Source: Mucisphaera calidilacus
GTDB lineage: Bacteria; Planctomycetota; Phycisphaerae; Phycisphaerales; Phycisphaeraceae
Direction: 5' to 3'
NCBI RefSeq assembly: GCF_007748075.1
Contig: NZ_CP036280.1
Location: 1,680,001-1,712,000, forward strand
DNA length: 32,000 bases
In this document: piece after piece, positions 1 to 28,629 of the stretch
Numbering within the stretch: the stretch's first letter is position 1
Layout of the letters: each line of letters opens with the position of its first letter
The notes under the pieces: model-generated
Told to the model about the DNA's origin: nothing
What the model saw: only the letters and a program-made list of their open reading frames with translations
Database searches by the model: none
Translations under genes and position numbers: made by a program

Positions 1-1700
1 CGCCCCGCCTGGAAAAGACGGTTGCCCTCGCCGATGTAACGGAAGGCGTAGGCGTGCTCGTTGGCGTGATGCCCGGGCTGAATCATCACGAGCATCTTCA
101 GGTCGGGTCCGCCAACAATAAGGTTGTTCTGGTAGAGATTGAGACCGGGCCTGACGAGCCGCTGGGTCTTGTGCCACGAATGCTCACGCGGGTGATAGAC
201 AACAGCCAGAGCAGGCAATGGGGTCTGATCGTCACCCTCGGTCATATCAGAGTTGTTGTAGATAATCGAATTCTTGAACGTCACCGGACCCGTAATCAGG
301 GTGCGGACCGCGGACTTCTGAGCGTGGGCAACAATGCTCTTGTCGACGTAGTAAGGCCCGTTGCCGATCTCGAAGAACAGGCCTCGCTGGTTGTAGGCAC
401 TCACCAGATTCTCAACAACGATATGCTCGCACTGGATGTCGTACCAGATACCCGGACAGAGATTACCAATCGCGGTGTGGTCACGGAGGATATTGAACTC
501 GGTGTCGTGGAACTTGATACCCCCCATGGCCCAGCTGTTGTAGTTGCCCCAGTGGCCACGCCAGTTGTTGAAACTCGTGGAATTACCCTCAAAGAGCGTA
601 TAACGATTCGGCCCCATGTTGATACCGCCGTCGCCGTTGTAGTCGAACCGGCTGTTGCGGATCGTCAGGTAATCAATGCTGTTCAGGCGAAGGCCGGTGA
701 AGTTATTCCAGGTGAAGGCGCAATCCTCGATGAGCACCTGCTCATACTTGCCGCGCAGGAACACCGGCCCGATGACACCGCCCTGCCGCTGACTCGCCGC
801 GCGGGTAAACGTCATGCCACGGATGACGAGATGCTCCTTGCCCCCGTCGACACGCAGGAGGTTGCCACGCGTAGACACCTCGATGCGGGCCGTACGCAGG
901 TCTTCGGTCTTCACGGGCCTGAAGTAGAGTCGATCCGACCACGGCGCAGAGTCCTCAGACTCCGCGACACCAAAGGTACCCGGGGTCAACACCTCGCGCG
1001 GATCCCTCACGCCATGCCGACTGTAGACCAGCCGCGAGTTGGAACCCATCTGCAACTTGCCCTCACGCCTGACCGACCACGCCTCCACGAGCACCTGCTT
1101 CGCCAGGTAGTCATCCACAAACAGCATCTCGCTTCGATGCCCCAGATACCCCTCCGGACCCCAGTCGGGTGAGCGGTGGCCAAAGTTGTGCTCCCACGGA
1201 ATCGCGTAGACACCCTGACCAACGTCCACCCAGTCCTCCGCCTTAACCACATCGGCGCCGGTGAAGATGGTCTTGTCGGCTCCGGCACCCTCGATGATCA
1301 GAAGCGTGCTGCGCACCAGACCGTCGCGTGTATCAAGCACACCCGCCGACTCCCGATACGTGCCCGGACCGATCTTGAGCTTGGTCGGCGTGCCCTCGGC
1401 AAGTGTCACCGAAGCGGCCCGCAGCCCGGCACGAATCGAGGGGAACGGGCGACGCTCCGTGCCGTCCGCCCCCGCATGCCGCGCACCGGATCGGACGTGA
1501 ATCGTGGCCTTGACGTGCTCGTCAGAAAGACGGCGTTCGTCAGCACCCGCGGTCTTCTCATCCATACGCTTGGCCCAGAGCGGCAGCTCATCCGCCAGCG
1601 TCGCCGCCGTGCCGATCCCGATACAGGCCAACATCACGCAAGCCACCAACGCACGCAGGCCCCGACAGAACGGGGTGTATTCAGCGAAAGAGCGATTCAC
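1..1700 (-). CDS. Secreted right-handed parallel beta-helix protein (DUF1565/pectate-lyase fold; candidate polysaccharide depolymerase); 3' end runs off the window
   Basis: Manual translation of the minus strand gives an open frame from a GTG at 1700 to the window edge. An AAGGAG Shine-Dalgarno sits 7 nt upstream of the GTG. The frame is absent from the ORF track because it is truncated. The N-terminus MNRSFAEYTPFCRGLRALVACVMLACIGIGTAATLA looks like a signal peptide. Downstream motifs are PFPSIRAGL...GTYRE, IEGAG..TIFTGADV, RNSRFDYNGDGG, NNWRG, GGIKF and YNQRGLFFEI. The protein aligns along its length with the 7317-9560 protein, so the two are paralogs. Confidence 0.75.
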   Translation of the reverse strand, partial: MNRSFAEYTPFCRGLRALVACVMLACIGIGTAATLADELPLWAKRMDEKTAGADERRLSDEHVKATIHVRSGARHAGADGTERRPFPSIRAGLRAASVTLAEGTPTKLKIGPGTYRESAGVLDTRDGLVRSTLLIIEGAGADKTIFTGADVVKAEDWVDVGQGVYAIPWEHNFGHRSPDWGPEGYLGHRSEMLFVDDYLAKQVLVEAWSVRREGKLQMGSNSRLVYSRHGVRDPREVLTPGTFGVAESEDSAPWSDRLYFRPVKTEDLRTARIEVSTRGNLLRVDGGKEHLVIRGMTFTRAASQRQGGVIGPVFLRGKYEQVLIEDCAFTWNNFTGLRLNSIDYLTIRNSRFDYNGDGGINMGPNRYTLFEGNSTSFNNWRGHWGNYNSWAMGGIKFHDTEFNILRDHTAIGNLCPGIWYDIQCEHIVVENLVSAYNQRGLFFEIGNGPYYVDKSIVAHAQKSAVRTLITGPVTFKNSIIYNNSDMTEGDDQTPLPALAVVYHPREHSWHKTQRLVRPGLNLYQNNLIVGGPDLKMLVMIQPGHHANEHAYAFRYIGEGNRLFQAG

Positions 1701-1765
1701 AGACGGTCTCCTTGATTCAGAGAAGGCAATGGTCGACAGGAAGCGACAGCACGCGCCGCGACGGA

Positions 1766-2602
1766 CTAACCCTTGATCGCGCCCGCGGCCAGACCGCGGA
1801 CAAACCATCGCATGAGAAAGATGAACATGATGATGAGCGGGATCGACGAGAGCGAATAACCCGCCATCATCTCACCCCACTGCTTGACATACTCACCCTC
1901 CAGTCGAAGCAGCCCGACGGGGATCGTCAGCTTCTCGTCGTCGCGGAGGATAACGAGGGGGAGCATGACGTTGTTCCACACGCCCAGAAACTTCATGATG
2001 GAGATCGTCGCGAGAATCGGCCCGCTCATGGGCAGGACGATATTGACAATCTGCTGAATATGGCCGGCCCCGTCCATCTCGGCCGCCTCAAACAGCGCCT
2101 TGGGGATGTCCTCGATGAACTGCCGGAGAATGAAGATGCCGGCCACCTGTCCGCCCGCAGCACCGACGACCACCAGCGCCCAGAGACTGTTGATCAGCCC
2201 CATGCCCTTGAGAAGCGTGAAGAGAGTCACGAGCGTCGCCGCCGTGCCCGGCAGAAACATACTCGCCACGATCCCGTAGTAGACAATCTCCCGGCCCGGA
2301 AACCGGTAACGCGCGATCGCGTACGCCGTCGGGATAATCATGCAGATACCAAACGCCACGGCCTGCACCGACACGAAGATCGAGTTGGCGATGTAGTTCT
2401 TCACGATCCCCCACGCAACCGACCAGTTCTCCCAGTGCCACTCGGAAATCGGATCGAAGAACCACGGGTTGGCCTGATACTGCTGGTTGTCCTTGAAACT
2501 GATGACAAACATCAGGAAGAGCGGGAAGAATGCGAAGAAAAGCACAAAGAGCACGATGAGGTGCTTGACGCCTTCGCCGGCTGCCGAGGGTTTGGATGCC
2601 AT
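1766..2602 (-). CDS. Carbohydrate ABC transporter permease (MalG/CUT1-type, BPD_transp_1)
   Basis: The 278-aa product has multiple hydrophobic helices and the EAA loop EAAEMDGAGHIQQIVNIVLPMSGP. The ATG lies 2 nt after the stop of the upstream permease. Confidence 0.9.
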   Translation of the reverse strand: MASKPSAAGEGVKHLIVLFVLFFAFFPLFLMFVISFKDNQQYQANPWFFDPISEWHWENWSVAWGIVKNYIANSIFVSVQAVAFGICMIIPTAYAIARYRFPGREIVYYGIVASMFLPGTAATLVTLFTLLKGMGLINSLWALVVVGAAGGQVAGIFILRQFIEDIPKALFEAAEMDGAGHIQQIVNIVLPMSGPILATISIMKFLGVWNNVMLPLVILRDDEKLTIPVGLLRLEGEYVKQWGEMMAGYSLSSIPLIIMFIFLMRWFVRGLAAGAIKG

Positions 2603-2604
2603 AT

Positions 2605-4146
2605 CTACTTGTCCACCTTGACGTACCGCTGATAGACAATCGTCAGCAGCAGGACCATCACGAAGAGAACCATGCCCAGGGCGCAGGAGTAGCCAAAGCG
2701 GCCGTCAATGAACGCCTTGGAGTACATGTACAGCCCGGGCACGATGCCGATATTCCCCGGCCCGCCCGCGTGACCGAGCAGGATGAGATAGAACTCATAG
2801 CCCGTGAGCGTGCCGATCGTCATGAAGATCAGGTTGATACGCACCTGAGTCATGACCAGCGGCAACTCGATGCTGAAGAGTCGCCGGACGGGGCCAACGC
2901 CGTCGAGCTCGGCCGCCTCGTAGACGTCGGTGGGTATCTGCTGGAGACCCGCCAGGTAGATCAGCACGCCGACGGTGCCCACCCACGGGAAGCCCCAGAA
3001 TATCAGTGCGGGCAGAACCAGGTCACGGCTGCCCAGCCACGCCGGAGTCCCCTCGATGAACTGATTGGTCGGTTCGACCCAGATCATGCCGAAAGCAACC
3101 AACAGCGAACCGACGGTGATCGTCGTATACCCCACCCAGCTCATGACCACCGGGGCATAAGCGTGATGCATCCGTGCACGCACAACCTCGCCGATCGCGA
3201 AGGCCGCGCCCATGAGGACCGGCAGATGGAGCAACGAAGTCCTACAGGCCCAGGCACCACCCAGCAGCAGGAAAGCCCAGAGCACCCACCGCGGGCCGAT
3301 GCGGGTCGCAGCGACATACATCAGCCCCATCATCAACGCGATCACCACCGTGAACCCCGGAACCGTCAACGCCAACTGCAGCGCCGCCGCCAGCCAGATC
3401 ACAACACCCAGGCCGACCAATGCCGCGTACGCGGTGAAACGCTCGGACCGATGCTTCGGCCACCCCTCCGTCGACGCCAGCACAAAAGCACCGAGCGCAA
3501 GCAAACCCCAGGTGCTGGAAAACACCACGCTCACCGGCCCCTCCATCACGGGCCGGAGCGCGGCCGCGATCGTCGGCATCACGCCCGGAGCCGCATCGGT
3601 GCCGTCGAGCCACGACAGAACGCCCATCATCCCCGTCATGTTCAGAAGACGATTGAGAATACCAAAGTCCGGATCGTAGAAACTCTTCCAAATCAGCAAC
3701 CAGACCAGCGCCGGGATTACCATCGGAATCACAAACAGAACCTGATAGATGTACCGCATGCGATCATTCAGCAGGCGGTGCAACGCAACAGCCGTGATGA
3801 TGGCCGGCCACATCTTGAACAGGTTCGCGACCAACATGATCGCCACCACCTTGAAGCTCTGCCAGAAGAGCGGGTCCGCAACCGCATCAGCAAAGTTCTG
3901 AAGCCCGATATACTCCTCCACCTCACCGGGCGTCCAGCGGTAGAAAGCCTTCACCACGACGTCATACTTCGGGTAATAACTGAAGACCAACAGCGAAACG
4001 ATCGACGGGAGCAGCAGGAGATAGATCGAACCGATAAACCGCGTCTTGTTCAGCAGACGCTGCCACAGGCGACGCGACGCCTGTTGCGCCTCGCCAGTAG
4101 CCGCGGTGCGGTCAGCAGTCTCCGAAGGGTAAGTCGTCTGGTTCAT
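2605..4146 (-). CDS. Carbohydrate ABC transporter permease (MalF/CUT1-type) with a roughly 200-aa hydrophobic insertion
   Basis: The 513-aa product carries the EAA loop YEAAELDGVGPVRRLFSIELPLV near its C-terminal third. The N-terminal TM1 and the loop IGLQNFADAVADPLFWQSF are typical of the family. Extra TM-like segments lie between GILNRLL and AWLGSRD. Confidence 0.85.
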   Translation of the reverse strand: MNQTTYPSETADRTAATGEAQQASRRLWQRLLNKTRFIGSIYLLLLPSIVSLLVFSYYPKYDVVVKAFYRWTPGEVEEYIGLQNFADAVADPLFWQSFKVVAIMLVANLFKMWPAIITAVALHRLLNDRMRYIYQVLFVIPMVIPALVWLLIWKSFYDPDFGILNRLLNMTGMMGVLSWLDGTDAAPGVMPTIAAALRPVMEGPVSVVFSSTWGLLALGAFVLASTEGWPKHRSERFTAYAALVGLGVVIWLAAALQLALTVPGFTVVIALMMGLMYVAATRIGPRWVLWAFLLLGGAWACRTSLLHLPVLMGAAFAIGEVVRARMHHAYAPVVMSWVGYTTITVGSLLVAFGMIWVEPTNQFIEGTPAWLGSRDLVLPALIFWGFPWVGTVGVLIYLAGLQQIPTDVYEAAELDGVGPVRRLFSIELPLVMTQVRINLIFMTIGTLTGYEFYLILLGHAGGPGNIGIVPGLYMYSKAFIDGRFGYSCALGMVLFVMVLLLTIVYQRYVKVDK

Positions 4147-4178
4147 GGTGGACGGTGTCGCTGATTACCTGGTAGGTC

Positions 4179-6029
4179 TTAGAACTCGGGGAACGGCTCG
4201 TCAGAATGCGTACGGCTCCACGCGCTGCGGGTACGCGTCGCTCCGAGCTGCTTGAGCGAATTGAACAACAGCAGCCGATACTTCATCTCGGCATCGGCCG
4301 CGCCGGTCGCCCCCGCAAGGTCGTTGTTGTTGAGAATCAGGTGCCTGAGGTCCTGGACCGCCATCAGGCGTTCCATCCCACGGGTGATGTCACGCTCGAG
4401 CCGGTCCGACTCGCTGTACAGCCGGGGGATGCCGTTATGCTCATTGCTTAGCCGATTCCCCACACGCTCGATGACCTCATCGACCGTGGCCTCGCCGCCG
4501 ATCAACAGCTCGATCTGCCCCTCGTACCCCATGCGGACATAGGAGTTCACGCGGTGACGCAGATCGATGCCGTAGGCCGGGATCGCGCCAACCGCATCGG
4601 GGATGAAGGGGTCCATCCGCGGAACGGGCGACGTGCCGATGATGCACGGCAGCCAGCCGCTGAGCTGATTGAACTTCTGGTTGACGCTGTAGCTGGTCAT
4701 GTAACGCAGAAAATCAATCGCCCACTCCTTGTTGGCCGATCGCTGATACACCTGATAAGGCACACCCGCCGAGATGGCCGCCTCGCTGGGCTTGATCAAC
4801 GCCGCGTCGTACCAACGCTCACCCGGAGCAGGAAGGGGCAGCTGTACGATCTCAACCTCAAACGGAACCGTCGCCTTCTTCGCGCCCTCGAACACCGTCG
4901 ACGCGTCCCACCCGCCCGTAAACAACATGGCGGCGTTCTCAAGCAAAAAACGCCTGATCGACTGCTCACGGTCCAGACCGAGAAAGCCCGGCGGGAAACC
5001 ACGGGAGATCGCCTCCATCGACTCGAGGTAATCGCGCATAGGCCGATCGTCCATCCGCCACACCGCATCCGACCACGCAGCACACTGCTCATCACGTGAA
5101 ATCGCGCTGTCCATGTTGACATCCATCCGACCGGCATAGCGATGCGTGAACGGCGCGATGTAGTAGCTGTACATCCAACGAGCGCTGTAGCTGCTCCCCG
5201 AAATCGGCACGAGCTTCGAACGCCCCGTCTCAGACGCCATGGCCGTCACCGCCCGGCTGAGCATCAGCAGACGGCCGAAAGTATCCGGCGCTGAACCGGA
5301 AACAACCCAGTCCCTGAACGCCTCGTCATCGCTCACGTAACGCTCCGCAAGGGCGTCACGCAGCCACACAGGCCTCGGCTCCGCAGCGAGCGCGCCGCCG
5401 AGGTACGTCATGCCCTCCGCAAGCAACCCGCGATTGAGATACACACGCAGCGGACCCCAGAAAGCACTCGGCGCCGCATAGTAATCCTGCAGCCGGTCGT
5501 CCCACCCGCCCTGCATGCCATCGACAAAGGTGTCACGCCAGGGTCCCGTCGACAGCGCCTCCGCGAGCGCAGCGTCCAGGTCAGGCGGGAGATACTCCGG
5601 GGCGTTGTAGGGATTCGGCCTCTGAACCCTGTCGCCAAGCGGCTCAAAGTACTTCGCCGTGTAATTACCCATGGTCATACGCGCCTGACCACGCTCACAG
5701 ATATCAGGCGCAGTGCCACTGATAATGTGCGTGTTCAGAAACTGCGCGTAGACACGCTCGGTCACAGCCAGCTGACGCACCTTGACCCCCGCGGCCTTCA
5801 CGCGCGGGAGAGCTTCATAATCGTCGATGATCGCCTGCAGGGCTTCCCGGTAACCCGGCTCGAGCTGCCAGTGGGCAATGCGGATCACAACACTCCCGTC
5901 ATCCTGGAGCGGGCCCTCGCCCGATTCCATGCTGAGCATCATCACACGGCTCGCACTGATCACGAACCCCGCGATCACGATCAACAGGCCGATGGTGTTC
6001 GGATGCAACAGAGTCTTGATCCATCTCAT
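4179..6029 (-). CDS. Extracytoplasmic solute-binding protein of the ABC importer (large, membrane-anchored)
   Basis: The 616-aa product has an N-terminal hydrophobic anchor IGLLIVIAGFVISA with no lipobox Cys. The following segment VIRIAHWQLEPGYREALQAIIDDYE...GTAPDI resembles family-1 sugar-binding proteins. It sits directly upstream of two permease genes. Confidence 0.65.
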   Translation of the reverse strand: MRWIKTLLHPNTIGLLIVIAGFVISASRVMMLSMESGEGPLQDDGSVVIRIAHWQLEPGYREALQAIIDDYEALPRVKAAGVKVRQLAVTERVYAQFLNTHIISGTAPDICERGQARMTMGNYTAKYFEPLGDRVQRPNPYNAPEYLPPDLDAALAEALSTGPWRDTFVDGMQGGWDDRLQDYYAAPSAFWGPLRVYLNRGLLAEGMTYLGGALAAEPRPVWLRDALAERYVSDDEAFRDWVVSGSAPDTFGRLLMLSRAVTAMASETGRSKLVPISGSSYSARWMYSYYIAPFTHRYAGRMDVNMDSAISRDEQCAAWSDAVWRMDDRPMRDYLESMEAISRGFPPGFLGLDREQSIRRFLLENAAMLFTGGWDASTVFEGAKKATVPFEVEIVQLPLPAPGERWYDAALIKPSEAAISAGVPYQVYQRSANKEWAIDFLRYMTSYSVNQKFNQLSGWLPCIIGTSPVPRMDPFIPDAVGAIPAYGIDLRHRVNSYVRMGYEGQIELLIGGEATVDEVIERVGNRLSNEHNGIPRLYSESDRLERDITRGMERLMAVQDLRHLILNNNDLAGATGAADAEMKYRLLLFNSLKQLGATRTRSAWSRTHSDEPFPEF

Positions 6030-7225
6030 GGCTCAGTACCCCCTGCCGCGACACGGTCCGGCGCAGGCCCGGTTGAACCCTCCGACGCCCGCGGCGTCTT
6101 GAACTCAACAAGGTCCGGAACACGCAGCTCAAGACGCGGGTGCTCCCTGGCAATCCGAAGCAGCACACGCCGCGCCTCGTAAGACCGGCCACTCCTCGGA
6201 TACTTCACCACCAGTTCCTCAAGAACAGGGACCGCCAGATCAAACCGACCCTGCTCAAGAGCCAGACGCGCAAGCGTCCAACTGATCCTCGGCGCGAATG
6301 TCGGATTGGTGAACCCGAGCTCGTGCGCTCGGGACAGAGCAAGAAGCGCACCCTCCCGATCTCCCTGCCGCTCGAGCATGATGATCCCCAGCGTCTCCCA
6401 GAGCAGAGGCAGCAGCTCGGCGTCGGGCCCGGCCTCGATGCGACACCGAAGCAGATGGACCGATTCCTCGATCGAATCCGGATTGCGGTACTCCGAGGCC
6501 AGCGACACCGCCAGCCGAAGCGTCGCCTCATCGACCAGTTCACCCGCCTCCTCTGCCTCGATCAGCTTCCGGTAATAGGCCCGGGCGAGGTCGTAATCGG
6601 TCGCGTCCCCCGGGTAATCAATCAGCTCTGCCATACGGGCCAGCGCCAGCCGAGAACGATCCCGATGCAAAGGCGCTTCAGCGTTCTCCTCGATACGAAC
6701 AAGCAGCTCTCGTGCCTCAACAGTCGCCCCCGACGATGGCGGCGTGTCGTGCCACAACGACATCGCCAGACCGTAGGCCGCGATGCACCAACGCTCCCCA
6801 CCCGTTCTTGCGGTTTCCATCTCCTCACGGAAGAGAAGCGAAGCCGCGGGGTAATCGAGCCTGACAAAGCTTCTCGCCGCAAGGACCAGAGGATCCACCG
6901 CTTCGGCCGACGGCCCCGTCGCAGCCGCAGCATCCTGCCGAGCCTCCTCCTCGGCGACTGCCCGCAAAGACGTGGATCCCAGCACACAACAGACAATCAG
7001 AAGCACACGCGCCCACAGCCCGCTCGCCGCCCGCCGCTCGAGCGGCCCACGCGCCCCCGTCCTCGCGAGACGCTCGCCTTCCTCAAAACAGCTCTCTCGT
7101 TCGACACCGGGGTCAGCCGGATGGAGCGGTCGTCGATGTTGTTGCCTCAGCAGATACATAGTCATGTCTGTTATCACCGTCGCGACGCGATGTTCGCGTT
7201 GATCATCAGGTTGCTGGCATACCAT
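6026..7225 (-). CDS. TPR-like all-helical protein with a signal or anchor segment, translationally coupled to the solute-binding protein
   Basis: The ORF is 399 aa. It has a hydrophobic segment LWARVLLIVCCVLGSTSLRAVA followed by helix-rich, repeat-like sequence rich in Ala, Leu, Glu and Arg. Its TGA overlaps the ATG of the next gene (ATGA at 6026-6029). The true start is uncertain; in-frame ATGs also occur at 7165 and 7159. Confidence 0.5.
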   Translation of the reverse strand: MVCQQPDDQREHRVATVITDMTMYLLRQQHRRPLHPADPGVERESCFEEGERLARTGARGPLERRAASGLWARVLLIVCCVLGSTSLRAVAEEEARQDAAAATGPSAEAVDPLVLAARSFVRLDYPAASLLFREEMETARTGGERWCIAAYGLAMSLWHDTPPSSGATVEARELLVRIEENAEAPLHRDRSRLALARMAELIDYPGDATDYDLARAYYRKLIEAEEAGELVDEATLRLAVSLASEYRNPDSIEESVHLLRCRIEAGPDAELLPLLWETLGIIMLERQGDREGALLALSRAHELGFTNPTFAPRISWTLARLALEQGRFDLAVPVLEELVVKYPRSGRSYEARRVLLRIAREHPRLELRVPDLVEFKTPRASEGSTGPAPDRVAAGGTEP

Positions 7226-7316
7226 TCAAAAGATGCTATCTATGTCATTGAAACTCAGTTCCAGAGTGCCGGTTGGCGGGTACGCCGCGCAAACCGCACG
7301 TAAATCGGCTGGTTGA

Positions 7317-9560: not shown

Positions 9561-9623
9561 GGTTGTTCTCCAGAACACAAGAGGCAACATCAACACCGTC
9601 TCAGCACCAGCGCCAAGCCACGC

Positions 9624-10589: not shown

Positions 10590-10615
10590 GGTGCACTATC
10601 CTTCAAAAAGGGATA

Positions 10616-13356: not shown

Positions 13357-14504
13357 AGCGTCACTGCCGCTCCTGCCCCGGCCGGCGCTGACAGACCGGA
13401 CACGTCAACACGCTCGCCAGGCTTGGGCGACGCCGCCGCAACAGCGATATAGGAATCGGCCGTGCCGTAGTAGATCAGCCATTGACCTCGGTGAAACACC
13501 AGCCCCTCGATAAACGTCACCTTGCCGATCTGCCCCTCCAGCTCGTAAGGCTGATCCGGCTTGATAAACGGCTCATCGGCCCGGTCCAGCATCCGGGTCG
13601 GATCGTTCGCGTCAAAGAGAGCCTGCACCCCGGCCCAGACATTACCGAACGGCGGCCCCTCAGGCGTCGGCACACGCTCCTGCTCCGGCAGCGGATTCGA
13701 GATGCCGTTGTACATAACCACGATCCCGTGCTCGGTCAGAATCGCAGCGGCACCCCCCTCCACAGCAAGATTATCCGTCGCGCTGTACCGCTCCTCAGGC
13801 CGGGGCCCCATCACCACCAGGTCACGGCCATCCTCGTCCAGCACACGCTCCCAGTGAATCAGATTGTCCGACACCGCGACACGCAGCTGCTCGACGCCCC
13901 AGTACATCCAGTACTTCCCGTTGATCCGCGTCGCCACCAGCCGATCATCCACCAGCCGCGAAACGATCTTGCCCGCCTTGAAACCCACACCCCCCTGACG
14001 CTCGCCATCAAGACCCGCCATCAGACCGTGCTTGGTCCAGTGCAACAGATCACGCGACGTCGCCAGGCACTGCTTGCCCGAAATCACGCCGTTGTACGCG
14101 TTGTACGTCATGTAATAAGTCCGGTCCTCGTCCTCGACAATACGCGGATCCTCAACGCCGCCCTCACGCTCGAAACACAAGAAGCTGTCGTTGTCCGGGT
14201 ACAGCACCGGACAACTGTGCCGCTCGAAAGTAATGCCGTCCTCACTCACCGCCAGACCGATCCGCGACGTCCCCTTGTACCTGCCCACGTGATCCTCAGC
14301 CCGATACAAAAGATAGACCCTGCCGTGACGCGTCACCGCGCAGGGGTTGAACACGTCCTTCGCCTCCCAGTCAACAAGCTCCTCGCGCACCGGGCAATAG
14401 AAACGCGTCGACGGCTCCGGCCCCATGATCGGGTTGACCGCATGGCACTTCTCAAAAGGACCGATCTGCCATTCAGGATAGCTAGACAAAACGAACTCCT
14501 GCAT
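13353..14504 (-). CDS. Glycoside hydrolase family 130 protein, long form
   Basis: Motifs include VFNPCAV, TSRIGLAVSEDGITFER, GGVEDPRIV, YYMTYNAY, LATSRDLLHWTK and IYYGTAD. I preferred the ATG at 14504 (MQEFVLSSYPEW) because it lies 4 nt after the upstream stop. The track start at 14564 would overlap the upstream gene. Confidence 0.75.
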   Translation of the reverse strand: MQEFVLSSYPEWQIGPFEKCHAVNPIMGPEPSTRFYCPVREELVDWEAKDVFNPCAVTRHGRVYLLYRAEDHVGRYKGTSRIGLAVSEDGITFERHSCPVLYPDNDSFLCFEREGGVEDPRIVEDEDRTYYMTYNAYNGVISGKQCLATSRDLLHWTKHGLMAGLDGERQGGVGFKAGKIVSRLVDDRLVATRINGKYWMYWGVEQLRVAVSDNLIHWERVLDEDGRDLVVMGPRPEERYSATDNLAVEGGAAAILTEHGIVVMYNGISNPLPEQERVPTPEGPPFGNVWAGVQALFDANDPTRMLDRADEPFIKPDQPYELEGQIGKVTFIEGLVFHRGQWLIYYGTADSYIAVAAASPKPGERVDVSGLSAPAGAGAAVTL

Positions 14505-14508
14505 CACG

Positions 14509-16563
14509 CTACGGACGCCCGGCCGCATCGGCCTCGCCCATGCTCGCATCTTCAACACGCACACGCCGGCAGGAAGGGTCGACGATCACCGGCCCCTCAC
14601 CATTCACGACATCCGGCGCTGCCGCATCATATTGATTGTCACGAACAACACTGTCACGCATACTGAACAGACGCACGCTGAAACCCGTGGTGTTCACAAA
14701 ACGATTACCCGCGATCTCGATATCCGCGATGTAAGGCGGGCCGTAGTGATAACGCTCACCCGGATAATCCACCGTCGCATTGATGCCGTGCGTCGCCTCA
14801 AAGGTATTGTCAATCATCCGCACGTTACGCGGCGCATACGCCTCCTGCCACGTCAGCCGCATCAGCAGCGAGACCGCCACGCCCGCATTCCGATCAAAAT
14901 GATTCCCCGCCACAAGACCGTTCGACGCCTTGAGCTTGATCCCGTTCACCGAGTTCTCGCCCAGCACCGAATCACGCATCACAAACCCGTCGCACTTCGT
15001 CTGCAGATTCGCCACCATCACCTCAAGCGGCTCGTCCGGAGCGCACATGTAAAACTCCATGTTGGAGAACACCGCGTGCGTCTTGCCCAACGACTCACGC
15101 GTCCGCAGCACCGGAAGCGGGCCGTCCAGCTTCACGCCCACCCGACGAAACCCACGCCACGTCCGCTCAGACACACCCGTGATCACCGGCGTGCCAACCG
15201 TCCCTCCCGTCATCGGATCGATCACCGCGAGCTGATCACCCACACGGAAGTGCCGACGGTCCGGCTGCCAGTTCACCGAACGATCCGACGGATCAAACGC
15301 ACTGTCCAGCACAAGCTCCGTCGCCGACGGCTGATCGTCGACCGACACCGCCTTGCAATACAGGTTCGACGAGTCGTCAAAATTACGGAGGATCCGGCAA
15401 TCCTGAATCCACGGCCCCACGCGCTGGGAGATGATGTGCAGACCGTCCGCGTTCGAGATCGCCAGCCGATCCGTCCCCGGCTTCGGCTCGCACACACAAC
15501 CGAGCAGCCGAACGTCGGTGTCCGCCGTTAACTGCCACGTGTGCGTCCACGCCGCATACACCGCGACACGCTCGAACGTCAGACGCGTGTTCCCCGCCGT
15601 CCACACCGCAGGCTGATGCCCCGGCACATTGCGACTCTGAATCGTCAGCGGATGACCCGGCCGGAACGTCTCCGGCAGATCTCGACCCGTCTCCCACGCC
15701 TGCTTCTTCCCGTGAAGAACAAAACGTTCTTCATCCAGCGGCTCAACCCGGGCCACGGTGAACCCGCCATGCCCCAGCACACGCCCCGTCTCCGGGCAGT
15801 GCGGCTTGGCACCGACATGCACCGCAAACACCGTCGGATCGCCGCCGACATCAAACGGAAAACCGGTCGGCGAAGGCCAACCCGCCTGACGACGCCACGT
15901 CACACTGAAGTCCTCAGGATGAATCGACTCGATCACGCCCTGCGTGAAAGGCAGCGGGTCGAAATCAAGACTCAGGTCAGCAACACGCACGTCCGCACAA
16001 TCCTCGATACGCAGCAGCGTGCCGATCTCCGTGCCCACCAACTCGGTCCTGCCGATGCCCTCGCCACGGATCGTGACGTCCTTCAACCCCTCCAGCAGCA
16101 GGTGCGTCCGACGAGGCGTGCCCCCAAAGCCATCAATCCGGTACGTGCCCGCCGGCAGCAATAATTCAGCCCCAGGCCCCGCCTCCGCCAGAGAGGCAAC
16201 AGCCCGGCGAAGGGCCGGGCCGTCGTCGTGGAGGTTGTCACCAACAGCGCCGAAATCACGCACGTTCAGCGTGACTGTCGGCCCGCCGATCTCGACCTCC
16301 CGAAGCGCCGCCCGTATCGCCGCTTCCAGGTTCTCACGGATCACCGCGTACTCACGCGGCCGAATCGAAGCCTCCATCGACGCCAGCGGCTCATCCGACC
16401 GGCCGTCATGACCCGCGATCAAACCCTCAAGCCGATTCAGGATGCTGACCTGATCCTCAAAATAAGGGACGGCGGGGTGACCTTCTTCGCGGATCCGTTC
16501 AAAGGCGCCAACAATCTCAGCAGACATCGGGACCGGTAGCGTCGACATACTCATACAACTCAT
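14509..16563 (-). CDS. Cytoplasmic right-handed beta-helix protein (Pectate_lyase_3-like N-terminal beta-helix signature)
   Basis: The segment LNVRDFGAVGDNLHDDGPALRRAVASL...LLLPAGTYRI is the classic start of tailspike/GH28/GH55-type beta-helices. No signal peptide is present. I placed the start at 16563 (MSCMSMSTLPV) because the longer track ORF, which reaches 16845, overlaps the upstream gene. The start is uncertain by a few codons. Confidence 0.65.
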   Translation of the reverse strand: MSCMSMSTLPVPMSAEIVGAFERIREEGHPAVPYFEDQVSILNRLEGLIAGHDGRSDEPLASMEASIRPREYAVIRENLEAAIRAALREVEIGGPTVTLNVRDFGAVGDNLHDDGPALRRAVASLAEAGPGAELLLPAGTYRIDGFGGTPRRTHLLLEGLKDVTIRGEGIGRTELVGTEIGTLLRIEDCADVRVADLSLDFDPLPFTQGVIESIHPEDFSVTWRRQAGWPSPTGFPFDVGGDPTVFAVHVGAKPHCPETGRVLGHGGFTVARVEPLDEERFVLHGKKQAWETGRDLPETFRPGHPLTIQSRNVPGHQPAVWTAGNTRLTFERVAVYAAWTHTWQLTADTDVRLLGCVCEPKPGTDRLAISNADGLHIISQRVGPWIQDCRILRNFDDSSNLYCKAVSVDDQPSATELVLDSAFDPSDRSVNWQPDRRHFRVGDQLAVIDPMTGGTVGTPVITGVSERTWRGFRRVGVKLDGPLPVLRTRESLGKTHAVFSNMEFYMCAPDEPLEVMVANLQTKCDGFVMRDSVLGENSVNGIKLKASNGLVAGNHFDRNAGVAVSLLMRLTWQEAYAPRNVRMIDNTFEATHGINATVDYPGERYHYGPPYIADIEIAGNRFVNTTGFSVRLFSMRDSVVRDNQYDAAAPDVVNGEGPVIVDPSCRRVRVEDASMGEADAAGRP

Positions 16564-16606
16564 TCTGCCTTGAACAGGGACCGTACGCTGTAATTCAGAG
16601 GCGACG

Positions 16607-17431
16607 TCAGCGCTGGGGCCAAAAGACGTCGATCCGCGGGTAGTCGTCTCGGGTGGCATCACGAGGCGGACGACCGTCTCGCGGGCTATCGATGGTGACC
16701 GTCCAGAGGTCGATGGTCTCAGCAACCGTGTCATCTTCGTTGCCGAGCACCTCACGCGCCTTACTCTCGGCGTGACCGTCAAAGAACAAGGCGTTCGTTG
16801 TCTCGCCGGGATGACGGTACGCAACCCCGCCACCGTTCTCTTCATCGATGTACTTATGCCTGTTGTTGAATGTATTCTGGAGCTCGCGTCCCCCTCCTGG
16901 CTCCATGTTGGTGTTGAAGTCGGTGAAGCTCACAGAGTCGGCGGGCGACAGAATCATGTACTTCGGGAAGGCCCGAAAGAATGCACCGCCACCAAATGGA
17001 TAAACGAAACGCAGGTTGGTACTGTTCGGGTAGTAAATATCACCGACGAAGGCGTCATCCGGCCCCAGTTCCTCGGGCTCCGCCGACGGGCAGATAAAAT
17101 CTGAGGGCCACGAATCCCAGGTGGTCGAGTCAACCTTATTGGGAATCAGGTTGCGTTTAAAATCCGGGTTCGTATACCAAAATGTCACGCTGGTGTCATC
17201 GGACATCCTGTAGGCGACAGGAACCGCAAGCTCATCCCAATCCAGGGAGTACGCCGCGTCGGCGATACCAAATTGACGCAGGATGCTCGAGCACTGGATC
17301 TTGCGTGCTGTCGAACGTGCCGCACCGAGCGCCGGCAGCAGAATACCGATCAGCAACGCAATAATCGAAATCACGACCAGGAGCTCGATGAGAGTGAATC
17401 CGCCGAAACGATGAGGGTGTGCGTGTGTCAT
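16607..17431 (-). CDS. Prepilin-type N-terminal cleavage/methylation protein of the DUF1559 family (pseudopilin-like)
   Basis: The protein begins [39 protein letters not shown], which contains the G/FTLIEL prepilin peptidase site. The segment [12 protein letters not shown] follows, and the C-terminal region has [14 protein letters not shown], an H-X9-DG-like motif with spacing 10 here. I chose the ATG at 17431 because GAGG lies 6 nt upstream. Confidence 0.85.
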
Positions 17432-17504
17432 GGCAACCTCTGCAGGGAAAAGGGCTGTTGCGTCCCGGCCATCCGGGGCCTGGGACAACTGGTTTCAAAG
17501 GGCC

Positions 17505-17526
17505 CGGCGGCAATGTCTTGCCGCCG
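17505..17526 (-). terminator. Candidate intrinsic terminator hairpin downstream of the PEP-CTERM gene
   Basis: The stem is a perfect 9 bp, CGGCGGCAA-tgtc-TTGCCGCCG, about 160 nt past the stop at 17683. On the minus strand it is followed only by gggcccTTTgaaa, so the U-tract is weak. Confidence 0.35.
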
Positions 17527-17682
17527 AACCGGGTGTATGTGGGGCTGATCCCCGACGGGCTCAGGCGGGAGGCCGTGTGCCACGCCGACCATCCAATCGA
17601 CGCGACGATGAGCGGAGGAAAGTCTCATCAATCCTCGGACTCACACCGGGCCTCCTCAGGGACAGCACCCGTGGCGAGATCA

Positions 17683-18627
17683 TCAGGCCATCCGCCGTCC
17701 GGCAACCAGAACGCCCAGACCCAGCAGGCTCAGAGCCGCCGGCTCCGGAGCCGCCGCGCCGGAGTCGAAGTTCGACGCCAGGATCGACAGGTCCAGCAGA
17801 TCAACGAATCCGTCCTCGTTGAAATCACCCTCAGCAACCGTGTAAGGCGTCTCAGTACCCTCGAAGTTGCTCGCGAGAATCGACAGGTCAAGCAGATCGA
17901 CCAGGCCGTCGCCGTTCGCGTCGCCGGGAACCGACGTCACCGGAGCGATCTCAACCTGGATACCCTCGACGTAGTAAGCGCGGTAGTCATTCGGATACCA
18001 GTCGAAGAAGATCAGTTCCGTGCCGGTCGGGATGAGGAGGTCTCCGACCGTGAACTCGTCGACACTGGCGTTGTCATTCGCGCCAACGTTGATGCCATCG
18101 GGATCAAGGTTGCCCACGTAGCTGTAGCCTTCGGGCGCAGGATCAATCCGAACACCATTATCGTAGTACTCAATCGCCGCACCCGAGTTCACATACGTCT
18201 CGATGTCGCCAACACGGAAAGCCGCACCGTCAAGACCACTGCCGACAAAGCGGTAGTCCACAAACTTGAGCAGAACGTCCTGATCGAACGTCAGACGCAG
18301 CTCCTCGTAACCCGCGATCTGGCGGTCAGCGGGCGCGCCGGCCGTGCTGCCCGTGCCCTTGCCCGACACGCCGATGCCCGTGGCGTCCCAGGGCTTGTCG
18401 GCCACACTGCCGTTGGCACTGCTGATGACCTCGGGAACATCATTCCCCTCATCATCTTCGTCAAACGCAGCGATGGTCAGCGTAACGCCGCCCTCCACCA
18501 GCACCAGAGCGTCCGTGGTCGTCGGGTCCGCATCCAGAGCAAAACTGAAATCAATCACAGCGGAAGCAGTCTGGGTCGATGCAAGCAGTGCACCGGCAAC
18601 GAGCGAAGCAGTTGTGAAGCGTGACAT
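17683..18627 (-). CDS. Surface protein with an unknown N-terminal domain, a dockerin-type repeat pair and a PEP-CTERM sorting signal
   Basis: The ATG at 18627 is preceded by a perfect AGGAGG. The signal peptide is MSRFTTASLVAGALLASTQTASA. A domain of about 210 aa follows in which I recognise no motif. The tail reads GDANGDGLVDLLDLSILASNF...GDFNEDGFVDLLDLSILASNF followed by APEPAALSLLGLGVLVAGRRMA. Confidence 0.8.
   Translation of the reverse strand: MSRFTTASLVAGALLASTQTASAVIDFSFALDADPTTTDALVLVEGGVTLTIAAFDEDDEGNDVPEVISSANGSVADKPWDATGIGVSGKGTGSTAGAPADRQIAGYEELRLTFDQDVLLKFVDYRFVGSGLDGAAFRVGDIETYVNSGAAIEYYDNGVRIDPAPEGYSYVGNLDPDGINVGANDNASVDEFTVGDLLIPTGTELIFFDWYPNDYRAYYVEGIQVEIAPVTSVPGDANGDGLVDLLDLSILASNFEGTETPYTVAEGDFNEDGFVDLLDLSILASNFDSGAAAPEPAALSLLGLGVLVAGRRMA
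17686..17925 (-). repeat. Domain-level module: dockerin-type repeat pair (17767-17925) plus canonical PEP-CTERM tail (17686-17751)
   Basis: The pair is GDANGDGLVDLLDLSILASNF and GDFNEDGFVDLLDLSILASNF. The tail is PEP, then ALSLLGLGVLVAG, then RR. Confidence 0.8.
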
Positions 18628-18668
18628 GAACGATCCTCCTAATGTGAAAAGAAACCATCGAAACACAA

Positions 18669-18684
18669 GCGGCCAGACAGCCGC
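18669..18684 (-). terminator. Candidate weak terminator or attenuator between lacI and the PEP-CTERM gene
   Basis: The stem GCGGC-cagaca-GCCGC is 5 bp. On the minus strand it is followed by the T-rich run TTGTGTTTCGATGGTTTCTTTT. It lies 14 nt after the lacI stop. Confidence 0.3.
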
Positions 18685-18697
18685 GAAACATCAGTCA

Positions 18698-19783
18698 TCA
18701 GGCCGGCAGGCCCGTCGAATCACGGATGATCAGCGAAGGCTGGAACAGGCTGCTCCGCTCCCTCTCAACCTCGACGAAAGACATCATCCCCGCCGGATCA
18801 TCACCATCACCGCGAATACCCAACTGCTGGAGCAGACGGTGAACCGCCAGACGCCCCATCTCCGCCGCGGGCACACGAACCGAAGTCAGCGGCGGACAGG
18901 TCCGCTCCGACGTCTCCAGATCGTTGAAGCCGACAACACTCAGCATGTTGGGAACCCGGATCTGACGCCGGTAACAATCACGCAGCACGCCGTAAGCAAC
19001 ATTGTCGTCGTAGCAGATCACCGCCGTAGGCGGGGGCGTGTCGCTGTTGACCTTACGGGCGAACGCACGCTGCAACTCTGGCAACTGATCGTCGTCACGC
19101 AACTCGATCACAGGCAGCTCGGGATTCAGACCGGCATCACGCCTCGCCTGACGAACACCCTCCTGACGCTGCTCGTAACTGTAATGCCGGCTGTGCTCAT
19201 ACTTGGGACGCACGAACCAGAAGTCGGTGTGCCCCAGCCCCACAAGATGCTCCGCCGCGACGCGACCCGCAGCCCGCTCATCGTTCAACACCTTCGGCAG
19301 CGAGACCTCAGCGTCAACGTTGACCAGCACCACGGGAACCTTCAACTCATCAACCACGCCCTCAAGGCCCAGCGGGATCGGCTGCATCACGATGCAACCG
19401 TCAACCCTGCGGTCGGCCAGCTTGTGCGACCAGGTACTCGGCTCGCCCGGCGCGGGCATCAGAATCAGGTCGTGATCGTCACGCTCCAACTCCCCCGCAA
19501 TCTCCGTAACCAACGAGCTGTAGGCACCGTCGAAGTACGGAACGTTCATGCCGTACAGCAGACCGATGCAACGCGTCCGCTTGCTCGCGAACGACTGAGC
19601 CCTGCGGTTCGGGCGGTAGCCCAGATCGACCGCGGCCTGATTGATCCGCTCCAGCGTGCTCTTGGCCACCGGGCCCGACCCGGAAAACGCGCGGTAGACC
19701 GTGACGTGCGTGACACCCGCCGCCTTCGCCACGTCATAGATCGTCGCTCGTTCAGGCTGAGGCTGGGTGGTGACGTTAGGCAT
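18698..19783 (-). CDS. LacI/GalR-family transcriptional regulator
   Basis: The 361-aa product has the N-terminal HTH TIYDVAKAAGVTHVTVYRAFSG...LGYRPNRRAQSF. A periplasmic-binding-protein-like sugar-sensor fold follows, with the segments IGLLY, AVICYDDNVAYGVL and SVVGFND. Confidence 0.9.
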   Translation of the reverse strand: MPNVTTQPQPERATIYDVAKAAGVTHVTVYRAFSGSGPVAKSTLERINQAAVDLGYRPNRRAQSFASKRTRCIGLLYGMNVPYFDGAYSSLVTEIAGELERDDHDLILMPAPGEPSTWSHKLADRRVDGCIVMQPIPLGLEGVVDELKVPVVLVNVDAEVSLPKVLNDERAAGRVAAEHLVGLGHTDFWFVRPKYEHSRHYSYEQRQEGVRQARRDAGLNPELPVIELRDDDQLPELQRAFARKVNSDTPPPTAVICYDDNVAYGVLRDCYRRQIRVPNMLSVVGFNDLETSERTCPPLTSVRVPAAEMGRLAVHRLLQQLGIRGDGDDPAGMMSFVEVERERSSLFQPSLIIRDSTGLPA

Positions 19784-19874
19784 GACTGATGTTCACTCAG
19801 GGCGTTAGAGCCATCCGAATCAAAGACGCACACAAACGAAACATCCGAAGCAGTCAGACACAAGACAAGAGTCA

Positions 19875-19888
19875 CTTCATGAATGAAG
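19875..19888. promoter_or_regulatory. Inverted repeat CTTCAT-GA-ATGAAG abutting the candidate -10 (possible operator)
   Basis: The two 6-nt arms are perfect reverse complements separated by 2 nt. The repeat starts directly after the TACATT hexamer on the minus strand, so it covers the expected transcription start. It does not match the classical CG-centred LacI operator consensus. Confidence 0.3.
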
Positions 19889-19916
19889 AATGTAACCGAG
19901 AACATAGCCGTGTCAA
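19889..19916 (-). promoter_or_regulatory. Candidate sigma70-type promoter of the lacI-led operon
   Basis: The minus strand reads TTGACA (19916-19911), a 16-nt spacer, then TACATT (19894-19889). This lies about 105 nt upstream of the lacI ATG, in the only A/T-rich stretch near it. Planctomycete promoter rules are poorly known. Confidence 0.35.
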
Positions 19917-20047
19917 GCAGCGTTTCGTACAAATCAGAAAATACCGCAAAGCCGCAAAACCCCCAGCCCGACAGCCTCATCCAGGCCTGCATCGGGTCGA
20001 CCCCAAGACCGTCAATCCCGGCCACAGAGCCGTATACACCGCTCTAG

Positions 20048-27104: not shown

Positions 27105-27137
27105 GGTTGGGCTACGGTCATCCATGTGAGAAGCTGT

Positions 27138-28544: not shown

Positions 28545-28629
28545 CACGGCGTACGACGCTTGGCAGCCAGCGTGGGTTGTCGAGGGGGCATCGAGAGCGC
28601 GAGGATGATCTGCGGGGGGTTCGCGGGTG

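Follow-up and report, generated by a model that had tools for sequence, protein, structure and literature searches.

Which glycan is handled by a run of fourteen genes that lies on one strand behind a LacI-family repressor gene in Mucisphaera calidilacus, and in which compartment of the cell is it broken down? The question is raised by positions 1,680,001 to 1,712,000 of contig NZ_CP036280.1, a stretch of 32,000 nucleotides (hereafter the window, whose own numbering is used throughout). An initial annotation had read the run as a single operon serving a single glycan. With somewhat better than even confidence, we favor a LacI-controlled cluster that would degrade a sulfated, fucose-containing heteroglycan, beginning at the cell surface and ending with cytoplasmic monosaccharides. 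Specialists would already expect a locus of this kind in these phyla; clusters of planctomycetal carbohydrate-active enzymes (CAZymes) and sulfatases have been described before at the genome level.

The 14 genes, LacI included, tile positions 1-19783, and every one lies on the minus strand (Table 1), confirming the arrangement first proposed. Between these positions, protein-like translations and family matches came from the minus-strand set of open reading frames (ORFs) only, spurious ORFs being frequent on either strand because the window has a G+C content of about 62%. From LacI to the gene for beta-helix 1, the spacers measure 70, 251, 58, 4, -4, -4, 26, 63, 91, -4, 32, 2, and 65 nt. All three overlaps consist of ATGA, and the other spacers range from 2 to 91 nt with the single exception of the 251-nt gap, so that the earlier description of spacers as short or as 4-nt overlaps holds for all junctions but one. 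Starts were chosen from ribosome-binding sites, the spacing to neighboring genes, and the gene calls stored in the protein collection where present, which match for beta-helix 2 (747 aa), beta-helix 3 (679 aa), and the solute-binding protein (SBP; 616 aa). No SusC, SusD, or TonB-dependent receptor occurs among the proteins that tile the window; the cluster is indeed free of SusC/D and lacks what defines a Bacteroidota-type polysaccharide utilization locus. The same-strand run extends upstream of LacI to a gene related to glycoside hydrolase (GH) family 51.

Table 1. Position, strand, and basis of assignment of the features discussed, from the LacI gene to the window edge, followed by non-coding features.
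Feature	Coordinates	Strand	Basis or remark
LacI-family repressor, 361 aa	19783-18698	-	Pfam
Dockerin/PEP-CTERM protein, 314 aa	18627-17683	-	AGGAGG ribosome-binding site ahead of ATG at 18627; Pfam
DUF1559 pseudopilin	17431-16607	-	Pfam, NCBIfam
Beta-helix 3, GH110-like, 679 aa	16548-14509	-	Profile, AlphaFold/Foldseek
GH130a	14504-13353	-	Pfam, NCBIfam, PDB
GH29	13356-11980	-	Pfam, PDB
S1 sulfatase sulfA	11983-10616	-	Pfam, PDB
GH130b	10589-9624	-	PDB, alignment to UhgbMP
Beta-helix 2, GH120-like, 747 aa	9560-7317	-	Profile, AlphaFold/Foldseek, Pfam
Tetratricopeptide repeat (TPR) protein	7225-6026	-	Pfam; start codon uncertain
SBP, 616 aa	6029-4179	-	Pfam below cut-offs, homologues
Long ATP-binding cassette (ABC) permease, 513 aa	4146-2605	-	Pfam below cut-off, NCBIfam
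Second ABC permease, 278 aa	2602-1766	-	Pfam
Beta-helix 1, GH120-like, runs past window edge	1700-1	-	Pfam Beta_helix
Sigma-70-like promoter TTGACA, 16 nt, TACATT	19916-19889	-	Promoter scan; -35 box at 19916
LacI-operator-like half-palindrome TGTTCTCGGTTACA	19904-19891	-	Motif search; overlaps promoter spacer and -10 box
Second LacI-operator-like site TGTTACCGATTACA	22077-22090	+	Divergent region, GH51-like gene (20315-22021, -) / sulfatase (22222-23721, +)
Longest spacer, 251 nt, between dockerin protein and pseudopilin genes	17432-17682	-	RNA folding

Beta-helix 3 is, on the evidence of profiles and a structural model, a distant GH110-type inverting exo-alpha-glycosidase with D368, D391, and D392 as its predicted catalytic residues. 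Its AlphaFold model (mean pLDDT 85, pTM 0.89) was compared with the PDB using Foldseek, and the top 15 matches were all GH110 enzymes (E-values of 1e-23 to 1e-26, target TM-scores of 0.50-0.77), the next fold following at 1e-10 after a gap of 13 orders of magnitude. A profile built from 10 family members, its nearest relatives, matched every solved GH110 at 1e-40 to 3e-56, including 8pvs (3e-56), 8yk3 (2e-50), 7jw4 (1e-46), and 9beh (2e-41), with an alignment covering 540 of the 585 profile positions. As a single sequence, beta-helix 3 reached GH110 in the PDB at only 9e-5, and it would therefore be a distant member of the family or a sister group. The Asp triad falls in the pattern NADG-x22-DD, whose 23-residue spacing equals that of D321/D344/D345 in PdGH110B and that of 8pvs, and D391 and D392 are invariant across the 10-sequence alignment. 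In PdGH110B, Asp344 is the acid, and Asp321 and Asp345 activate water (PMC7939477). The initial annotation had placed this third beta-helix protein in the cytoplasm, which agrees with the absence of a detectable signal; the GH110-type, alpha-galactoside-like step was missing from the pathway that it predicted.

How rare such proteins are depends on the search. A word-seeded search yielded 10 relatives, and the view of beta-helix 3 as nearly unique was rejected when an exhaustive HMMER search raised the number to 57 cluster representatives with E <= 1e-30, or 740 with E <= 1e-10; its clade is rare, not unique. The closest relatives are devoid of signal peptides, and a few of the more distant ones have them. 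A scan of species-representative genomes with the family alignment returned no relatives of beta-helix 3, and a scan anchored on GH29 succeeded instead.

A precedent for the pairing of a GH110 enzyme with a sulfatase is the lambda-carrageenan cascade of Pseudoalteromonas distincta U2A, in which S1_8B acts before GH110A (PMC7939477, PMC12549532). The window enzyme has the same beta-helix fold and domain architecture as the U2A GH110 enzymes, with the same Asp triad at identical spacing. Both are linked to an S1 sulfatase, and the nearest solved relatives of the window sulfatase sulfA are the galactose-2-sulfatases S1_8B and S1_8A of that very cascade (1e-28). The logic would be the same in both systems, an exo-sulfatase acting first and an exo-alpha-glycosidase second. 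In contrast to the U2A enzymes, beta-helix 3 is only about 16% identical, bears an additional N-terminal three-helix domain, has no signal peptide (the Pseudoalteromonas enzymes were cloned minus their predicted signal peptides), and associates with GH29 rather than with GH150 and GH2. The assignment of sulfA to the sulfatases is based on the Pfam Sulfatase model (104 bits), a SGSH_C domain, and the maturation motif CSPSR; in the PDB search, it also matched mucin-desulfating and N-acetylglucosamine (GlcNAc)-6-sulfatases.

Among the other enzymes without signal peptides, the family of GH29 is unambiguous at the sequence level, with a match to Pfam Alpha_L_fucos (PF01120) at 1e-75 (256 bits against a cut-off of 25) and to PDB entry 6gn6 at 6e-100, so that an alpha-L-fucosidase is predicted. 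Its gene overlaps both neighbors by ATGA, and orthologues with 63-71% identity were found in four related loci (L005, L012, L013, and L014). The two GH130 proteins fall on different sides of their family. GH130a (Pfam GH130, 1e-32) appears closest to the BT3780-type, hydrolase-clade beta-mannosidases: it matches the NCBIfam model of the BT3780 beta-1,2-mannosidase at 5e-103 (345 bits, under the 550-bit cut-off), the hydrolase-clade structures 4onz, 3r67, 3qc2, and 5a7v at about 1e-85, and phosphorylases at 1e-26, and it has E-D at the proton-donor position (VEDPR). This hydrolase clade has been described as secreted (PMC4599007, PMC7660257), yet GH130a lacks the clade's signal peptide. The same absence of a signal peptide was observed in its 66%-identical orthologue in L013 (1501-2586), where a stop codon lies one codon 5' of the ATG. 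GH130b is nearest to TM1225 (3e-42), UhgbMP (1e-38), and RaMP2 (3e-38) in the PDB. Aligned with UhgbMP (chain numbering offset 20), it conserves Y103, D104, R150, R168, and H231 and keeps the YDPR, NRN, ERP, and FHA motifs. A Y/R pair together with R/H phosphate binding is the signature of beta-1,4 GH130 phosphorylases (PMC7660257), and GH130b thus carries the signature of a cytoplasmic beta-1,4-mannoside phosphorylase, sharing with UhgbMP, RaMP2, and TM1225 the proton donor, the phosphate-binding R/H, the Y/R signature, and the predicted location. A further difference is that neither of the two sits in a mannan or N-glycan locus. The signal-less set first listed (a sulfatase, GH29, and two GH130 proteins) was therefore confirmed as to family by Pfam, NCBIfam, and PDB searches, and the profile models of Pfam and NCBIfam placed the enzymes in glycan families.

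Export was judged from N-termini by a heuristic combining hydropathy and motifs, applied at candidate starts. Signal-peptide-like N-termini, in which positively charged residues are combined with a hydrophobic core and a site of the AxA type, were found in beta-helix 1, beta-helix 2, and the dockerin protein. The pseudopilin carries the prepilin leader G|FTLIELLVV, and the SBP and the TPR protein have one N-terminal hydrophobic or transmembrane segment each. Conversely, no hydrophobic N-terminal segment was recognized by this heuristic at any candidate start of beta-helix 3, GH130a, GH130b, GH29, or sulfA. The division between exported and signal-less proteins set out in the initial annotation is thereby supported, and correcting the starts brought to light no signal peptide on the supposedly cytoplasmic enzymes. 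The window contains three S1 sulfatases in all (10616-11983, 22222-23721, and 25601-27028), each of the Cys type (C-x-P-x-R) and none with a recognizable signal peptide, which would imply that desulfation takes place in the cytoplasm.

The two exported beta-helix proteins, which share 32% identity, are probably retaining glycosidases related to GH120 and GH141, as judged from profiles and a model. Their family is small (22 matches by word-seeded search), and its profile matched the GH120 enzyme XylC (3vst) in the PDB at 7e-27, in two stretches. In XylC, Asp382 is the nucleophile and Glu405 the acid/base (PMC3507262). These residues align to D413 and E436 of beta-helix 2, and both are invariant in alignments of 19 and 21 sequences, with the 23-residue spacing kept. 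The AlphaFold model of beta-helix 2 (pLDDT 74) returned 3vst first (9e-17) and the GH141 enzyme BT_1002 second (1e-12) in Foldseek, with a TM-score to 3vst of only 0.48-0.55. A relationship to GH120 is clear, with GH141 next closest, membership of GH120 itself being uncertain. An identity as polysaccharide lyases or C5-epimerases was considered for the beta-helix proteins and rejected, the scores of AlgE4, RbmB, and pectate lyases being far lower than those of GH110 and GH120.

XylC (3vst, PMC3507262) is therefore the best match of beta-helix 1 and 2 both by sequence profile and by structure, and the right-handed beta-helix with an inserted domain is common to all, as are the catalytic residues and their spacing. 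The differences are an identity of about 15%, a TM-score of about 0.5, and the export of the window proteins with dockerin and PEP-CTERM-like tails. They also keep the company of fucosidases and sulfatases, not of xylan-degrading genes, and this genomic context offers no support for xylan as a substrate. A more distant likeness is to the GH141 alpha-L-fucosidase BT_1002 (PDB 5mqp). Beta-helix 1 matches Pfam Beta_helix at 3e-11 and has about 120 C-terminal residues beyond the window edge; its orthologues in L005 (52% identity) and L012 (60%) stand beside LacI, pseudopilin, and GH29 genes. The initial annotation had called these proteins surface depolymerases. Their export is supported by the N-termini; "depolymerase" is only an assumption because the characterized structural neighbors, the GH120 XylC and the GH141 BT_1002, are exo-acting.

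Beta-helix 2 matches both Beta_helix and Dockerin_1 in Pfam, its C-terminal dockerin being followed by a PEP-CTERM-like tail in which PAP replaces PEP. The protein encoded at 18627-17683 has an N-terminal domain of unknown type, a type I dockerin-like domain (Pfam Dockerin_1, 2.4e-9), and a PEP-CTERM-like tail composed of PEP, a hydrophobic stretch, and RR (16.6 bits, under the cut-off of 20.7), ending in PEPAALSLLGLGVLVAGRRMA. A C-terminal module of about 90 aa is common to this dockerin protein (17683-17970), beta-helix 2 (7317-7620), and a peptidase-S51-like protein (28270-28544), with 47-60% identity. The proteins that share it are exported and otherwise unrelated, and the module suggests a common surface-anchoring device.

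The importer comprises an SBP and two permeases, as the initial annotation had stated, and no ATPase gene belongs to the locus. The SBP matches Pfam SBP_bac_1 and SBP_bac_8 below their cut-offs. Its 147 homologues of about 600 aa come from Planctomycetota (including Phycisphaerales) and Verrucomicrobiota (Opitutales and Puniceicoccales), and several sources name them raffinose/stachyose/melibiose-type SBPs. The long permease is below the cut-off of Pfam BPD_transp_1 and matches NCBIfam UgpA, GlcT, and MalF over residues 367-511. It has at least 9 hydrophobic segments and an extra stretch of about 220 residues before the MalF/UgpA-like core, which from its hydrophobicity appears to span the membrane rather than to form a periplasmic loop; its orthologues of about 500 aa have this feature too. 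The 278-aa permease (BPD_transp_1, 4e-14) has 6 hydrophobic segments. The whole cassette (TPR protein, SBP, permease of about 500 aa, and 278-aa permease) recurs in a Planctomycetota metagenome-assembled genome (MAG; L009) and in Coraliomargarita algicola (L011), where the orthologues of the long permease share 54-62% identity and those of the short one 60-72%; in the latter locus, the cassette is followed by a gene for a MalK-type ATPase.

The TPR protein matches Pfam TPR_6, TPR_16, and TPR_2, and its gene overlaps that of the SBP by ATGA. In L009 (9069-10004) and L011 (9102-9977), the gene immediately upstream of that for the SBP encodes a homologue with about 30% identity. Both Planctomycetota and Verrucomicrobiota thus conserve a TPR protein of about 300-400 aa directly upstream of long SBPs, with the 4-nt overlap in two of the three loci (the window and L009), and from this conservation it looks like an unrecognized accessory component of the transporter. 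CUT1 systems commonly have their ATPase gene outside the locus. Like the CUT1 importers MalEFG and MsmEFG, the window system has an SBP, two BPD_transp_1 permeases, and a MalF-like C-terminal core; in contrast to them, its SBP exceeds the typical length by about 200 residues and is below the Pfam cut-offs, its first permease has about 220 extra and largely hydrophobic residues, and its SBP gene is translationally coupled to that of a conserved TPR protein.

The pseudopilin exceeds the cut-off of Pfam N_methyl (30.6 bits against 21.2) and falls just under that of DUF1559 (21.6 against 23.3); the N-termini of NCBIfam GspG and GspH also match. In L005 and L012, a homologous gene stands at the equivalent position, and L007 also has one. 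The association is suggestive only, because DUF1559 genes abound in these phyla, with two of them near an unrelated SBP homologue (L010).

How the cluster is controlled can be approached through the LacI gene, whose product carries the Pfam LacI helix-turn-helix, Peripla_BP_1, and Peripla_BP_3 domains and shares 61% identity with the LacI of L005 and 47% with that of L012. The promoter in Table 1 is the only promoter-like site in its region; the scan returned 3 sites in 20 kb where 4.6 were expected, and this site is not significant alone. An operator-like motif occurs upstream of LacI in all three of these loci. In L005, a perfect 20-bp palindrome, TGATGTAACCGGTTACATCA, abuts the -10 box of a promoter, in L012 there are two related sites, and the window site has 3 mismatches. 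The motif search gave 2 matches in the window against 0.44 expected, both in intergenic DNA, which is a small fraction of the window. No site was found inside the 14-gene run, which is consistent with a single regulated promoter without proving it. These sites support an autoregulation of LacI through the candidate operator. Because of the second site at 22077-22090, the LacI regulon probably extends past 19916 to the GH51-like gene and the second sulfatase gene.

The region around these two genes has features of its own. The GH51-like protein is predicted to be exported, has no Pfam match, and reaches GH51 arabinofuranosidases in the PDB at 4e-14; the second sulfatase is signal-less. The 531-nt region upstream of LacI (19784-20314) contains GTGGGG-type 10-mers at 20079-20102 (Tandem Repeats Finder, period 10, 2.4 copies) and several small palindromes. 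Further on, 23729-25567 and 27135-31854 encode a signal-less DUF2264 protein, the dockerin/PEP-CTERM peptidase-S51-like protein (27135-28544), L-arabinose isomerase (AraA), L-ribulose-5-phosphate 4-epimerase (AraD), and a GH1 enzyme, such that genes of arabinose catabolism adjoin those of sulfated-glycan metabolism. Rfam and tRNA scans of the window found nothing.

Comparison with other genomes, as the initial annotation had proposed, showed that part of the run recurs as a core. L005/L006 has counterparts of beta-helix 1 (52%), LacI (61%), the pseudopilin (41%), the GH110-like protein (66%), GH29 (63%), and sulfA (61%), in that order, and no GH130 or ABC genes; its sulfA-type and GH110-like genes belong to the same operon. 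In L028 and L029, a sulfA-type sulfatase (32-36% identity, and far closer to sulfA than to the other sulfatases of the window) is encoded directly upstream of the GH110-like gene (44% and 40%). A GH110-like gene (33-34%) is accompanied by a large GH120-like gene in L007 and L030, the former also having a pseudopilin, a major facilitator superfamily (MFS) transporter, and LacI. L012, from a Planctomycetota MAG, combines LacI, a PEP-CTERM protein, a DUF1559 pseudopilin, the beta-helix 1 orthologue (60%), and a second GH120-like gene with converging genes for GH95, an apiosidase-like protein, two sulfatases, a GH63-like protein, and GH29 (64%); L013 has a GH63-like gene, GH130a (66%), and GH29 (71%). 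On these comparisons, the recurrent core is made up of the GH110-like gene with a sulfA-type sulfatase and the GH120-like genes, often joined by GH29, LacI, and the pseudopilin. The GH130 genes and the TPR-SBP-permease cassette occur separately in related loci, the cassette without the window enzymes, and the locus would therefore be a mosaic to which they are add-ons in this genome. The gene run itself was found as first described; that it is a single operon serving a single glycan is not established, since related genomes carry its modules apart. GH42-like genes, of which the window has none, stand beside the GH110-like homologues of L005 (14573-16666), L007 (18437-20482), and L028 (4376-6391), which hints that cleavage of a beta-galactoside or alpha-L-arabinopyranoside was part of the ancestral module.

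As to the substrate, fucoidan loci of Planctomycetota have been located by taking GH29, GH95, and GH141-type enzymes together with sulfatases as markers (PMC11685898). The company of the orthologues (GH29, GH95, GH141-like folds, and sulfatases) matches these markers, and a fucose-containing sulfated glycan is for this reason our best guess from gene content. The SusC/D-free loci described in Planctomycetota and Verrucomicrobiota, for fucoidan in strains 892/913 (PMC11685898) and for a sulfated methyl-pentose (PMC8857213), share with the window GH29-type CAZymes, S1 sulfatases, and a regulator, the use of ABC or MFS transporters in place of SusC/D, many sulfatases without signal peptides, and the same taxonomic range. 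In contrast to them, the window is devoid of GH107, GH168, GH174, and GH187, has exported GH120-like and cytoplasmic GH110-like proteins instead, adds two GH130 genes, and has a putative link to fucoidan drawn from gene content. Arabinose-related genes occur in the flanks (GH51-like, AraA, and AraD in the window, GH127 in L005), and together with the GH42-like genes and the beta-mannoside enzymes, they point to a more complex heteroglycan or to several substrates. A fuconate-pathway reading of a dehydratase flanking L005 was rejected, its nearest NCBIfam models being arabinonate and galactonate dehydratases, so that it gives no specific pointer to fucose.

The pathway that we favor would run as follows. 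Beta-helix 1 and 2, as exported retaining glycosidases of GH120-like (and GH141-like) type, would act extracellularly on the polymer, attacking or trimming it, with one exported glycosidase held at the surface by its dockerin and PEP-CTERM tail. Sulfated oligosaccharides would be imported by the ABC cassette typical of the Planctomycetota-Verrucomicrobiota-Chlamydiota (PVC) bacteria (TPR protein, 616-aa SBP, and permeases of 513 and 278 aa) with an ATPase from elsewhere. In the cytoplasm, the S1 sulfatase would unmask the non-reducing end, and the GH110-type inverting alpha-glycosidase would then remove an alpha-linked galactose-like residue, by analogy with S1_8B acting before GH110A. GH29 would remove alpha-L-fucose, and beta-mannosides would be processed by GH130b as a beta-1,4-mannoside phosphorylase and by GH130a as a BT3780-type beta-mannosidase. 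LacI would repress its own promoter through an operator of the TGTNNNCGGTTACA type overlapping the -10 box and would probably also control the divergent GH51-like/sulfatase pair upstream. Directly shown are which genes are present, with their order and overlaps, their families and folds, the conserved catalytic residues, and the recurrence of modules elsewhere; from these we infer where the proteins are located, the endo or exo mode of action, the order of the steps, the co-transcription of the genes, and the substrate.

Several observations weigh against this pathway. At its first step, extracellular depolymerization by beta-helix 1 and 2 is unproven, XylC and BT_1002 being exo-acting, and no endo-fucanase of GH107, GH168, GH174, or GH187 and no lyase was recognized in the window. 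The closest database homologue of beta-helix 2 (32% identity; L001, 6426-8492) adjoins genes for a nucleotidyltransferase-like protein and for dTDP-sugar isomerase and epimerase, a biosynthetic context. At the import step, no ABC ATPase gene was found anywhere in the 32-kb window, and the importer would need one encoded elsewhere. Inside the cell, the localization of the enzymes is deduced from the N-terminal heuristic, the S1_8-like subfamily of sulfA is a nearest-neighbor guess at E = 1e-28, and the window has no gene for a sulfatase maturase, either formylglycine-generating enzyme or anaerobic sulfatase-maturating enzyme. The known substrates of GH110 enzymes are alpha-1,3-D-galactosides rather than fucosides, and at about 16% identity the specificity of beta-helix 3 may differ even from these. 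As for the unity of the cluster, promoter- and terminator-like sites are no more frequent than chance, and operon boundaries cannot be drawn from them for this reason; the structured 251-nt spacer could be a divider between transcription units; and, with modules that are separate in other genomes, the cluster may serve more than one substrate.

These last points bear on the reading that comes closest to ours, in which the run is a collinear mosaic of independent modules serving different substrates, possibly with internal promoters. Three modules can be drawn: one for fucose, sulfate, and alpha-galactosides (the GH120-like, pseudopilin, GH110-like, GH29, and sulfatase genes), one for beta-mannoside salvage by the GH130 enzymes, and the TPR-SBP-permease cassette. 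In other genomes, L005 has the core without GH130 or ABC genes, L009 and L011 have the cassette without the window enzymes, L013 pairs GH130a and GH29 with a GH63-like gene instead, and L007 uses an MFS transporter. The spacers fit such a division, with 63 and 91 nt ahead of the beta-helix 2 and TPR genes and, above all, the 251-nt gap at 17432-17682. This spacer contains several long GC-rich hairpins and folds at -120 kcal/mol against -101.7 for shuffled sequences (z = -3.4); an Rfam search matched it to no family, and its possible roles include those of terminator, attenuator, processing site, and repeat element. However, all the genes are on one strand, and the operator-like sites are confined to the LacI promoter and the divergent region upstream, none being inside the run. 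Moreover, GH130a is wedged between the GH110-like gene (4-nt gap) and GH29 (ATGA overlap), and GH130b begins 26 nt after the sulfatase gene, so that the GH130 genes are almost certainly co-transcribed with the core. Taken together, we consider independent modules unlikely, while granting them serious attention.

In another reading, the target would be an animal or host glycoconjugate instead of an algal polysaccharide, such as the blood-group-B-like Gal-alpha-1,3-(Fuc-alpha-1,2)-Gal, sulfated mucin-type glycans, or N-glycan cores. The enzymes would each have a role there, GH110 removing alpha-Gal, GH29 fucose, the sulfatase sulfate groups, and GH130b phosphorolyzing Man-beta-1,4-GlcNAc. The blood-group-B alpha-galactosidases (GH110) of Akkermansia and Bifidobacterium are among the top structural matches of beta-helix 3, the N-glycan core is the target of UhgbMP, to which GH130b is closely related, and sulfA has the mucin-desulfating and GlcNAc-6-sulfatase matches mentioned above. 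Yet the window contains no endo-beta-N-acetylglucosaminidase (GH18 or GH85), GH20 hexosaminidase, sialidase, GH2, or alpha-mannosidase, the Y/R signature cannot tell Man-GlcNAc from mannan-oligosaccharide phosphorylases, arabinose catabolism genes lie beside the locus, and the related loci are those of Planctomycetota and Verrucomicrobiota rich in GH95, GH29, sulfatases, GH42, GH127, and GH51-like genes. A host glycan is for us a very improbable target.

PEP-CTERM proteins are generally associated with exopolysaccharide-producing bacteria, and the least probable reading of all is that the exported beta-helix proteins work on exopolysaccharide or a surface layer made by the cell itself, either binding it (as adhesins) or remodeling it (as autolytic glycosidases), and the cytoplasmic enzymes recycle the fragments set free: the biosynthetic neighbors of the closest beta-helix 2 homologue and the unrelated contexts of the others, with no conserved catabolic setting, would suit it, but beta-helix 1 orthologues are found repeatedly within catabolic loci (GH29, GH95, sulfatases, and LacI), the GH120 catalytic Asp/Glu pair is invariant across the beta-helix 1/2 family, and the locus has an importer and catabolic enzymes and no glycosyltransferases.

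Returning to the favored reading, a surface-to-cytoplasm pathway for a sulfated, fucose-containing heteroglycan, a bolder suggestion can be made, tentatively and with more doubt than conviction. The GH110-like enzyme, its co-evolving sulfA-type sulfatase, and the exported GH120-like proteins might form an undescribed, PVC-restricted module in two compartments, in which the oligosaccharides of a fucose-containing glycan would be imported fully sulfated, their desulfation and cleavage following in the cytoplasm. New specificities would belong to the GH110-like and GH120-like clades (cleavage of a sulfated alpha-L-fucoside or an alpha-galactoside, or endo-cleavage of a fucan, for instance), and the recurrent DUF1559 pseudopilin and the TPR companion could serve in glycan capture and uptake. 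New CAZy families or subfamilies would then be warranted.

Planctomycetota and Verrucomicrobiota are thought to degrade the recalcitrant sulfated algal glycans that store marine carbon, and their loci contain many beta-helix proteins without an assignment. Three of these now have concrete and testable ones, one GH110-like and two GH120-like, to which are added a recurrent partnership between a sulfatase and a GH110-like enzyme, a candidate LacI operator, and a conserved TPR/SBP/permease cassette. If confirmed, they would bring additional enzyme specificities and an uptake route into models of sulfated-glycan turnover outside the Bacteroidota.

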